This document shows positions 50,901 through 54,813 of a stretch of DNA of 59,446 bases, piece after piece. The notes under the pieces were generated by a model. That model had not been told where the DNA came from, ran no database searches, and saw only the letters and a program-made list of their open reading frames with translations. Where the stretch lies: positions 1-59,446 of the forward strand of contig JAKVBD010000028.1 of assembly GCA_022446985.1 (NCBI GenBank), read 5' to 3'. Within the stretch, counting starts at the first letter, position 1; each line of letters starts with the position of its first letter. The position numbers were made by a program, and so were the translations under genes. The stretch comes from Lentisphaerales bacterium. GTDB lineage: Bacteria > Verrucomicrobiota > Lentisphaeria > Lentisphaerales > Lentisphaeraceae.

Positions 50901-51145
50901 TCTTTATAAAAACTAAGGCTGGTAAAGATATCGCGGGAGTTCTTTTAGAGAAAGGCAAGAAGGAATGGAGTATTAAAGCTGCCAATGGCAGCAAGCAGTC
51001 AATTAAGGTTAATGACATTGCCAGTCATCAGTTGACATCCGTCATGCCACCTATGGGTATGATATTAAAACCAAAAGAAATTCGAGATACTGTTCAATAT
51101 CTCAAGTCTCTTGTGTTAACTAAGAAACGCAAAAAGAAAAAGTAA
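47939..51145 (+). CDS. PVC-type secreted 'membrane-bound dehydrogenase domain + HEAT repeats + C-terminal cytochrome c (CxxCH)' protein, ending in a KKRKKKK tail
   Basis: Signal peptide. N-terminal sugar-dehydrogenase-like beta-propeller segments ([38 protein letters not shown]). Multiple HEAT-like repeats. Haem motif CIRCH near the C-terminus. This architecture matches the Pirellula/Verrucomicrobium-type proteins (TIGR02604/TIGR02603-like). Confidence 0.75.
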   Translation: [1068 protein letters not shown]

Positions 51146-51242
51146 TCCTGGGAATAAATTTTGCCGAGCTATAGCTCAGCGATCCACAGTCCTAAGATCA
51201 CCGGCAGCTCGCCGGCATACATTAAAAACATAGGAGCCACTT

Positions 51243-53286: not shown

Positions 53287-53310
53287 CAACGTTATCCCAA
53301 TGAAGGTGAT

Positions 53311-54813
53311 TTACTTTTTCTTTTTATTTTTCTTTACCTCTTCGAGATGTTCTGGCTTGAGGTATTTCGTACCAGCATAAAAAGGATAATCCTGCCAAGG
53401 GTCAAGGCCATCAACTCTTGGGTCGCCGGTTTCTTTTTGGCGATTCTCAAGGAGTTTAATTAACTCATCTTTTTTACCGGAGTATTCAGGATCTCCAGCA
53501 AGATTGTTCAATTGCGCGGGATCTTTGCGAATATTGTAAAGCTCCTCTGCTGGAAGTTTCCCAAAGGATAAATTAAAGAATTTAGAGCTTTGGTTTTTAA
53601 GAAGAACTGATTTACTTGGGCCTTTATCAATATCTCCGGCTACTCCCTGGTGGCTGGCTTTAAAGTCCACAGGACCCATTGGCCAACGGTCTGGTGTGTA
53701 ATTGCGGATGTAAACAAAATCATCAGTGTGAATGACACGACGGCCATACGTTTTACCATCTTCTCTGGCCCAAACGTGTCGCTCCAAACCTGAAACAGTG
53801 AATGATCGTTCAGAATCAACTCGACCTTCTTTGTCGGATTTAAAAATATTCACGACGCTTTTACCTGTCATATCTTTTGGAATGGATAAGCCAGCTACTT
53901 CTAAAAAAGTAGGTGCAAAGTCCTCATGATTAATGAAGTCAGAAACTTTACGGCCACCTTTGATTTTGTCACCCCACATCATTGCCAATGGCATGTGAAC
54001 ACCATAATTATAGGCTGTTGCTTTTGCTCGAGGGAAGGGCATGCCATTATCGGAAGTTAAAACGATCAGAGTATTGTTCAACATTTTTTTCTTTTCGAGA
54101 AAATTGATCATCTGAACCAGGTGATTATCCTGCCATTGAATTTCAAAGTAATAATCAGCAATATCATTACGAACTTCTTCACAATCAGGCAAGAAAGAAG
54201 GCACGGTCACTGTTGCAGGATCGATTTTATGTTCTTTACCAATTCCATATTTATAAGACCTGTGTGGCTCAGAAGCTCCAAACCAGAAGAAGAATGGTTT
54301 ATTTGGATCTTTTTCATTTACAAATTTTTCAAAAGAAGCAGCATAGTTGACCGGCTTGATGCCCTTTGGGACTGTCATTTTTACATTGACTTGTTTGCCA
54401 TAAATGTTCTGCCAGCAGTAATCGAAACTCTGGTTCGCAGGGCTATAGCCTTTGCCGGTTATACCTATTTCGTAGCCTGCATCTTGTAATAGTTTGGTAA
54501 AGATAGGGAATTTCTTTTTCAGCTTTCCGAAAAGAAGGCCGCCTTCTTCCAGCCTCCAGAAACTTTGACCGGTTAAAATGCTGGCTCTCGATGGTGCACA
54601 GGAAGGGCAATTGGTGAATCCATTTTCAAAATAGATACCGTTTTCAGCAACACGATCAAACCCCGGAGTTTTGACGACTTTATCACCAGCAAAAGAGGTG
54701 TGTTTCCAACTTTGATCATCGGTGATACAAAATAAAATATTTGGGCGATCATCAGCTTTGAGACCACAAATTAAAAGTAAAAGAAAAAACAACACATACT
54801 TCATGCAAAACAT
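53311..54813 (-). CDS. Secreted sulfatase with canonical CAPSR formylglycine motif, ending in a KKNKKKK tail
   Basis: Signal peptide. RPNILFCITDDQSW. Signature NCPSCAPSRASILTGQ. 500 aa. Confidence 0.85.
   Translation of the reverse strand: MFCMKYVLFFLLLLICGLKADDRPNILFCITDDQSWKHTSFAGDKVVKTPGFDRVAENGIYFENGFTNCPSCAPSRASILTGQSFWRLEEGGLLFGKLKKKFPIFTKLLQDAGYEIGITGKGYSPANQSFDYCWQNIYGKQVNVKMTVPKGIKPVNYAASFEKFVNEKDPNKPFFFWFGASEPHRSYKYGIGKEHKIDPATVTVPSFLPDCEEVRNDIADYYFEIQWQDNHLVQMINFLEKKKMLNNTLIVLTSDNGMPFPRAKATAYNYGVHMPLAMMWGDKIKGGRKVSDFINHEDFAPTFLEVAGLSIPKDMTGKSVVNIFKSDKEGRVDSERSFTVSGLERHVWAREDGKTYGRRVIHTDDFVYIRNYTPDRWPMGPVDFKASHQGVAGDIDKGPSKSVLLKNQSSKFFNLSFGKLPAEELYNIRKDPAQLNNLAGDPEYSGKKDELIKLLENRQKETGDPRVDGLDPWQDYPFYAGTKYLKPEHLEEVKKNKKKK

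Follow-up and report, generated by a model that had tools for sequence, protein, structure and literature searches.

The locus analyzed here raises the question why three neighbouring genes, encoding a dehydrogenase-like cytochrome protein and two sulfatases, should each end in a run of basic codons directly before the stop. They lie on a contig of 59,446 bp (hereafter the window; ~41% GC) from the metagenome-assembled genome (MAG) of a Lentisphaerales bacterium, a member of the Planctomycetes-Verrucomicrobia-Chlamydiae (PVC) bacteria, and the initial annotation had read their ends as a sorting or retention signal shared by secreted proteins. We find that these polybasic tails are a translated, charge-selected protein feature and that, among the exported proteins of the PVC loci surveyed, they occur mainly on sulfatases. 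Their most plausible role, to which we assign a probability of about one half, would be that of a polycationic appendage drawn to polyanions by charge without further specificity, the likeliest partner being the sulfated glycan substrate of the enzymes.

Three adjacent polybasic tails

The first tailed protein is a PVC-type haem-binding (CxxCH) dehydrogenase-like protein of 1068 amino acids (aa; 47939-51145, forward strand) that consists of a signal peptide, a DUF7133 beta-propeller, HEAT repeats and a C-terminal cytochrome c domain (Pfam DUF7133, HEAT_2 and Cytochrom_C; NCBIfam TIGR02604 and TIGR02603) and is 100% identical to a c-type cytochrome listed at NCBI under 'MAG: Lentisphaerales bacterium' (P0121). 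Its tail, TKKRKKKK (51119-51142, forward strand; ACT AAG AAA CGC AAA AAG AAA AAG), is directly followed by the stop codon (51143-51145). The second is a formylglycine sulfatase of the S1_8 subfamily (sulfatase 2; 626 aa, 51243-53123, forward strand), with a TTG start, a signal peptide, the catalytic Cys68 and a helical C-terminal domain; its tail of 10 residues (53091-53120, forward strand) lies past the RRL(E/F)YL end that is conserved in the orthogroup and directly before the stop (53121-53123). The third, on the reverse strand, is another S1 sulfatase (sulfatase 3; 53311-54813; 500 aa by the longest open reading frame (ORF), 497 aa in NCBI; 100% identical to P0241), with a signal peptide, the motif C-A-P-S-R and the tail KKNKKKK (53314-53334, reverse strand; end ...EEVKKNKKKK; AAG AAA AAT AAA AAG AAA AAG in reverse complement), again directly before the stop (53311-53313). 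The polybasic ends are thus present where the initial annotation had placed them, and its claim that they sit on signal-peptide-bearing proteins agrees with the plausible classical N-terminal signal peptides that we found on all three (MKYVLFFLLLLICGLKA among them).

The tails carry 6 to 9 lysines or arginines (K/R) within the last 8 to 10 residues and a net charge of about +6 to +9. At least six K/R in the last eight residues were found in these three proteins only, all other window ORFs of at least 100 aa having four or fewer, and two other signal-peptide proteins of the window, a HlyD-like adaptor (45351-46415) and a Dabb lipoprotein (47334-47705), are without tails. As a background of ~1% (3/247) was found for at least five K/R in the last eight residues of non-sulfatase ORFs in 20 or more PVC loci, three adjacent tails are far beyond chance. 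Nor are they assembly artefacts, since the syntenic counterparts of all three genes encode polybasic tails too in independent assemblies from other samples (L034, with 79-84% aa identity; L035 and L036, with 74-78%). In these relatives the residues and the codons of the tails differ while the charge persists (e.g. TKKGKKNKK).

Sixteen tails from several phyla contain more AAG than the codon usage in the body of each gene would predict, and their longest A-runs sum to 85, versus a mean of 116 in simulations that drew codons by each gene's own AAA/AAG usage (0 of 5000 simulations gave a value as low). This avoidance of A-runs indicates selection for faithful translation of the lysines, and the alternation of AAA and AAG that is common to the tails can be ascribed to the avoidance of slippery poly-A. 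The DNA end AAAAAGAAAAAGTAA is common to all three tails, which a repeat search reports as repeats of 24-28 nt; a motif at the DNA level was ruled out, because the relatives use other codons and residues, the arginine codons differ between the first gene (CGC) and the second (AGA), and the alternation reflects A-run avoidance. An RNA element or terminator was also ruled out: there are no Rfam matches in the window, and the only terminator-like hairpin between the convergent sulfatases (53235-53252) is far from the tails.

Lysine-rich ends could also be the product of near-neutral, low-complexity drift, arising from the loss of a stop codon in front of A-rich DNA, from slippage or from a preference for lysine before stops, in which case they would be harmless and without function. 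One or two terminal lysines are present on about a quarter of the window ORFs, which fits such an origin. We consider drift rather improbable, given that the polybasic character was kept on three genes in three lineages through the turnover of residues and codons and that the codons avoid slippery A-runs; the distribution of the tails, given in the following, bears on it further.

Tails among orthologues and in the surveyed loci

Within each of the three families 120 orthologues were scored, and a tail was called when at least five of the last 10 residues were K/R. Absence of the tails from orthologues was what the initial annotation had regarded as speaking against its reading, and this is half the case: 111 orthologues of sulfatase 2, 117 of the dehydrogenase and 113 of sulfatase 3 are untailed, yet the tails are kept in close relatives and recur independently in other PVC sulfatases. 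The three tailed dehydrogenases are the three closest orthologues and belong to the lineage of the window only, all others ending in ...YLATLK or similar. Tailed orthologues of sulfatase 2 (9/120) include those of a Pontiellaceae/Tichowtungia-like group, which end in ...GGTGEVPKKKKGK, lengthened to ...KGKKKRKKK, and those of Planctomycetaceae and Phycisphaerae, which end in ...GKPKKKRKKK and have twin-arginine translocation (Tat) signals; other members of the sulfatase-2 family are tailed as well. For sulfatase 3 (7/120) the tails include KKNPKRKKLK, KALRRRR, KRKRRR and DRRKKR and occur in Lentisphaeraceae and in Phycisphaerae/Planctomycetota. Altogether tails were found in at least 10 distinct sulfatase lineages, appearing independently in sulfatases of Kiritimatiellota, Planctomycetota and Verrucomicrobiota, and parsimony on neighbour-joining trees made without the last 20 residues requires that the tail was gained or lost at least six times in one sulfatase orthogroup and at least seven times in the other. 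From these comparisons of sequences the tail appears as a labile but recurrent trait and no conserved family feature. A scan of genome contigs, which served as a phylum-level control, found no close Lentisphaerales relative.

That more than 90% of the orthologues lack a tail is what neutral drift would produce, and the cores of the tailed orthologues are without the extra acidity that would need compensation, which is also compatible with it. On the other side, of the 21 C-terminal extensions that reach at least eight residues past the conserved end in sulfatase-2 orthologues, 17 have a net positive charge and one has a net negative charge, and lysine tails are present in a genome of 61% GC. 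Charge compensation as the reason for the tails was ruled out, the cores of tailed orthologues being no more acidic than those of untailed ones.

The census of tailed proteins covered the window and the loci fetched around the orthologues, i.e. sulfatase-centred loci, in which ORFs were called crudely, sulfatases were recognized with a hidden Markov model, signal peptides by a heuristic test and tails by at least five K/R in the last eight residues; its statistics ignore kinship. Counting all genes of the PVC loci, 13 of 46 sulfatases are tailed, and so are 4 of 111 other signal-peptide ORFs, three of which are dehydrogenase orthologues. Among bystanders, a set that leaves out the search-key genes, the three tailed genes of the window and the syntenic loci L034 and L035, tails are found on 8/28 sulfatases versus 1/105 other signal-peptide ORFs (Fisher p = 1.2e-5) and on 2/142 ORFs without a signal peptide. 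The sole tailed bystander with a signal peptide that is no sulfatase has a PEP-CTERM-like anchor (a hydrophobic stretch plus RRR). The loci of Bacteroidota and Gammaproteobacteria contained no tails on 29 sulfatases, 88 other signal-peptide ORFs and 101 ORFs without a signal peptide (non-sulfatase total 0/189). Both the strong enrichment on sulfatases and the lack of tails in these low-GC loci are difficult to reconcile with drift. Of the enrichment on sulfatases and carbohydrate-active enzymes for which the initial annotation had proposed a test, the PVC loci show that on sulfatases but none on glycoside hydrolases or other signal-peptide proteins, and with 1/105 versus 8/28 the idea of a sorting or retention signal common to secreted proteins in general is not supported.

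The same selectivity is found within single clusters. In a Pontiellaceae cluster (L170) 4 of 7 sulfatases are tailed while glycoside hydrolases of families GH2 and GH43 and an alginate-lyase-like protein are not; in a Phycisphaerae locus (L171, 61% GC) two out of three sulfatases have ...RKKKK or ...KRKRRR as their last residues; and in L037 both sulfatases are tailed, with an esterase, a 3-keto-disaccharide hydrolase and PSCyt and DUF1501 proteins untailed. No GH2, GH29, GH43, esterase, 3-keto-disaccharide hydrolase, PSCyt or DUF1501 protein of the examined clusters has a tail. Some Lentisphaeraceae sulfatases are untailed too (L039 and L043), and the presence of the tail is patchy even between paralogues of one cluster.

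The export signals of the tailed proteins are of the Sec type, the Tat type (RREFLAG; L016, L017 and L171) or the lipoprotein type (L037; LFVAC), and the tails are therefore not tied to a single export route. One Lentisphaeraceae sulfatase (L037, 11965-13587) has a lipoprotein-type signal (...LLFVAC) together with a ...LSKKKKK tail and would be both lipid-anchored and polybasic. In a Tat-signal sulfatase (L166, 2744-4207) the polybasic block VKKKKKNRQKKNKK is located nine residues from the C-terminus (...NSEEKSSVF), so that the basic cluster need not be strictly terminal.

Arg-rich ends were also observed on a cytoplasmic DEAD-box helicase and a Radical_SAM_N protein (L171, 11823-15103; ...RRRRRPRRSSGI and ...PRRRPARRKKRR); on proteins that bind nucleic acids in the cytoplasm, polybasic C-termini are common and a phenomenon of their own. 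In an unbiased scan of metagenomes for KKxKKKK before a stop codon, most of the matches listed were poly-A or eukaryotic-like noise, and the usable ones were too few for statistics. About a dozen credible bacterial proteins were recovered among the matches listed: one signal-peptide sulfatase, one signal-peptide GH10 protein and, for the remainder, cytoplasmic binders of nucleic acids or ribosomes (DEAD helicase, L25, YidC, topoisomerase), LpxD and a signal-peptide leucine-rich repeat protein.

A candidate handle for polyanions

Both tailed sulfatases have the characteristics of S1 formylglycine sulfatases, namely the alkaline-phosphatase-like fold and the C/S-x-P/A-x-R motif region, and match the Pfam families Sulfatase (PF00884; E = 6e-40 and 1e-38) and SGSH_C. 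The closest solved structures to sulfatase 3 are 5g2v and 9bb9; sulfatase 2 matches PDB entry 9bba (S1_8C) with E = 1e-165, and of its motif C68-S-V-A-R72 the residues C68, S69, A71 and R72 are invariant across the 43 orthologues aligned. An AlphaFold2 model of sulfatase 2 reached a predicted local distance difference test (pLDDT) score of 90 and a predicted TM-score (pTM) of 0.90; secondary structure ends by residue 615 and pLDDT drops below 50 at residues 620-626, so the tail is predicted to be a disordered appendage outside the fold. The S1_8C enzyme of Pseudoalteromonas distincta is an exo-galactose-2-sulfate 2-O-sulfohydrolase of the lambda-carrageenan cascade that takes the 2-sulfate off the ends of oligosaccharides and in which the C-terminal domain plays no part in the active site (PMC12549532).

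A short disordered polycation at the end of an exported enzyme, past its last folded element, would give that enzyme a non-specific electrostatic pull toward polyanions. The partner would most plausibly be the sulfated glycan substrate itself, because the tails are almost confined to sulfatases among the exported polysaccharide-utilization proteins of PVC bacteria; the tail would then speed the encounter with densely sulfated chains, lengthen the residence on them and release as sulfate is lost from the chain. That such binding improves catalysis or substrate retention is what we infer. By inspection, the tails fit XBBXBX (B, basic residue; VKKNKK included), a Cardin-Weintraub pattern of clusters that bind glycosaminoglycans, but this is a loose criterion at the level of composition. 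The tailed dehydrogenase lies directly upstream of the tailed sulfatases, a gene order that is kept in both relatives. Of the electrostatic role suggested in the initial annotation the general part stands as the best explanation of the tails; sulfated-polysaccharide binding is favoured, and the anchoring to an anionic membrane that had been suggested as well is the rival treated below.

Related devices are known from other organisms. Eukaryotic C-terminal basic tails that bind glycosaminoglycans (GAGs) or mediate retention are found on CCL21, CXCL12-gamma, PDGF (the retention motif) and EC-SOD. Like the PVC tails, these C-termini are disordered and polybasic and belong to proteins with a signal peptide. 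They tether their carriers to sulfated glycans; unlike the PVC enzymes, the carriers are signalling proteins, for which the tails steer gradients and presentation and not the encounter of enzyme and substrate. Basic tails of chemokines are dealt with in PMC8836243. A bacterial precedent is HBHA of mycobacteria, with a Lys-rich low-complexity C-terminus that binds sulfated glycoconjugates and heparin electrostatically (PMC3293801). The analogy is functional only: HBHA is an adhesin with Lys-Ala-Pro repeats, methylated lysines and no signal peptide, whereas the K/R runs of the PVC enzymes, which are exported by Sec or Tat, are shorter and not repetitive. The closest documented analogue, again in function and not by homology, is found among sulfatases, namely the strongly basic non-catalytic hydrophilic (HD) domain of human Sulf1 and Sulf2. 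It contains 12 consecutive basic residues; small substrates are processed without it, whereas the binding and desulfation of heparan sulfate and the localization at the cell surface require it (PMC3890690). The HD domain is, however, an insertion of ~300 residues, while the PVC tails comprise 7-16 residues at the extreme C-terminus and have many independent origins. Neither the 500-aa nor the 626-aa sulfatase contains an HD-like insertion of ~300 residues, the orthologue alignment being continuous, and the nearest characterized relative of sulfatase 2 is an exo-sulfatase, unlike the Sulf endosulfatases.

Several points weigh against a handle for sulfated substrates. The dehydrogenase is tailed though it is no sulfatase, and its link to the substrate follows from the conserved gene order only. 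The glycoside hydrolases of the same clusters are untailed though they too act on oligosaccharides that are still sulfated, and most orthologues function without a tail, so that the benefit would be modest or niche-dependent. S1_8C-type enzymes are exo-acting on oligosaccharides, for which tethering to a polymer counts less. As is known from the thermodynamics of oligolysine-heparin binding, electrostatic binding by ~8 charges is strongly screened at the ionic strength of seawater, and the affinity may be weak if the organisms are marine. Finally, the census figures come from sulfatase-centred loci, from heuristic calls of ORFs and signal peptides and from statistics without phylogenetic correction.

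The same physics would also allow the tail to stick an exported enzyme to the polyanions of the cell itself (anionic phospholipids of the membrane in the periplasm, lipopolysaccharide, or an acidic or sulfated exopolymer) and so to stop its diffusion. Charge conservation, A-run avoidance and disorder fit this envelope or matrix retention equally well, the basic domain of the human Sulf enzymes serves substrate binding and cell-surface localization alike (PMC3890690), the cytochrome c domain of the tailed dehydrogenase presumably hands electrons to membrane partners, and with two UDP-glucose dehydrogenases and CysD/CysN encoded in the window an acidic or sulfated exopolymer is conceivable. A general device of this kind would be expected on many exported enzymes, however, and in the census a single one of the 105 signal-peptide ORFs that are no sulfatases has it, as does no GH2, GH29, GH43, esterase or PSCyt protein of the same clusters; the L037 sulfatase has a lipoprotein-type anchor already, and the charges are not accompanied by an amphipathic or hydrophobic element. 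We regard retention as a tentative alternative, clearly behind binding of the substrate in plausibility and ahead of drift.

A dedicated sorting signal, in which a machine specific to PVC bacteria (a sorting protease or transferase, a secretion step at the outer membrane or a coat-like receptor) reads the tail and sends sulfatases to a compartment or to the surface, would agree with the restriction of the tails to PVC bacteria in our sample and with their position at the extreme C-terminus of, within the examined clusters, exported proteins only. With the signals of the LPXTG/sortase, PEP-CTERM/exosortase and GlyGly-CTERM/rhombosortase systems, which likewise belong to exported proteins, the tails share the basic residues at the very C-terminus. 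None of the signature motifs of these systems was found in the last 40 residues, either in the three proteins or in their tailed relatives, and no hydrophobic run precedes the tails, which follow polar or linker sequence (...GDEQFAKKTKK..., ...PEHLEEVKK..., ...GGTGEVPKKKK...), in contrast to the genuine tripartite-type anchor seen in L003 (...GIALLGALRRRSRR; ...ATSLLAGIALLGALRRRSRR). Scans of the tailed proteins against Pfam and NCBIfam yielded no C-terminal sorting domain of the type IX secretion system (a beta-sandwich of ~70-100 residues); sulfatase 2 ends in helices and then in disorder. The eukaryotic dilysine signal KKXX for retrieval to the endoplasmic reticulum is carried by type I membrane proteins on the C-terminus that faces the cytosol, and is recognized by COPI. 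The tailed proteins, in contrast, are exported and soluble, have a single N-terminal signal peptide and lack a transmembrane helix ahead of the tail. Since the tails have a composition but no conserved motif, vary in length and spacing from KKKK to 16 residues, are patchy among the paralogues of a single cluster and co-occur with no candidate partner gene in the loci examined, a dedicated machine is very improbable. We hold an equally low opinion of the more specific idea that the polybasic C-terminus is a sorting or retention code of PVC sulfatases read by a receptor, be it a coat-like protein of beta-propellers and alpha-solenoids or an anionic structure of the envelope. If true, such a code would gather the desulfating enzymes in a periplasmic or surface sub-compartment for the uptake of sulfated polysaccharides and would be a bacterial counterpart of charge-based C-terminal trafficking signals. 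A delay of export in favour of the cytoplasmic maturation of formylglycine was ruled out by reasoning, because the tail is exported last, ~550 residues past the catalytic Cys, and Tat substrates are also tailed.

Sulfatases are the gatekeepers of the bacterial use of sulfated glycans such as carrageenan, fucoidan and mucin, and PVC bacteria encode hundreds of them. A literature search brought up no account of polybasic or lysine-rich C-termini, be it on bacterial sulfatases or on proteins of PVC bacteria or Lentisphaera; polybasic glycan-binding tails are already well known in eukaryotic secreted proteins and in HBHA. An easily evolved polycationic handle would be a simple and previously unremarked way of targeting enzymes to charged substrates or of holding them near the cell, and it could be copied onto engineered sulfatases or carbohydrate-active enzymes for the processing of sulfated polysaccharides. 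For annotators the tails are a reminder that a C-terminal feature shared by exported proteins need not be a sorting signal.

Neighbouring and related genes

Further downstream in the window a fourth sulfatase (57377-59039, forward strand; stop at 59037-59039) has the weaker basic end described in the initial annotation (...GTFLKKK), with three K/R in the last eight residues and hence below the tail criterion. Its frame, opened by an ATG at 57377 (MKYRIFF), changes at a T6 run (57394-57399), and the signal peptide resumes in the frame of position 57387 (CAIFLLLADTLLKAEEKAPNFIIFYMDD), which is either a homopolymer assembly error or the mark of a recent pseudogene. Between the tailed sulfatases and this gene lies a DDE_Tnp_1_4 transposase (55759-57114, reverse strand) with a basic N-terminus (MPKKKKKPRTSRK). 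An identical protein of 451 aa is found on two contigs of ~2 kb from other ENA samples (L164 and L165), a sign that the element may be an active insertion sequence at which assemblies break.

A conserved module on the reverse strand (33303-41571), also present in L034, comprises a YqiJ_N membrane protein (40927-41571), a 732-aa SPFH/Band_7 protein (38715-40913), a 1621-aa ATPase with DUF3686, DUF7902 and AAA domains (33752-38617) and a 170-aa protein (33303-33815), and resembles a pairing of a flotillin-like protein with a giant ATPase. The order rpsI, argC, argB, argD, argF, two UDP-glucose dehydrogenases, cysD and cysN is common to the window (16992-26745) and a Lentisphaeraceae genome (GCA_021232515; L039, 1-11860). 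In that genome an untailed S1_8 sulfatase orthologue directly follows cysN, and the sulfatase has therefore moved relative to the window. Many Verrucomicrobiales orthologues of the dehydrogenase (47939-51145) carry extra F5/8 type C (discoidin) domains, and a paralogue in L043 (1236-6088) also adjoins a sulfatase, which hints at a recurrent partnership of sulfatase and dehydrogenase.

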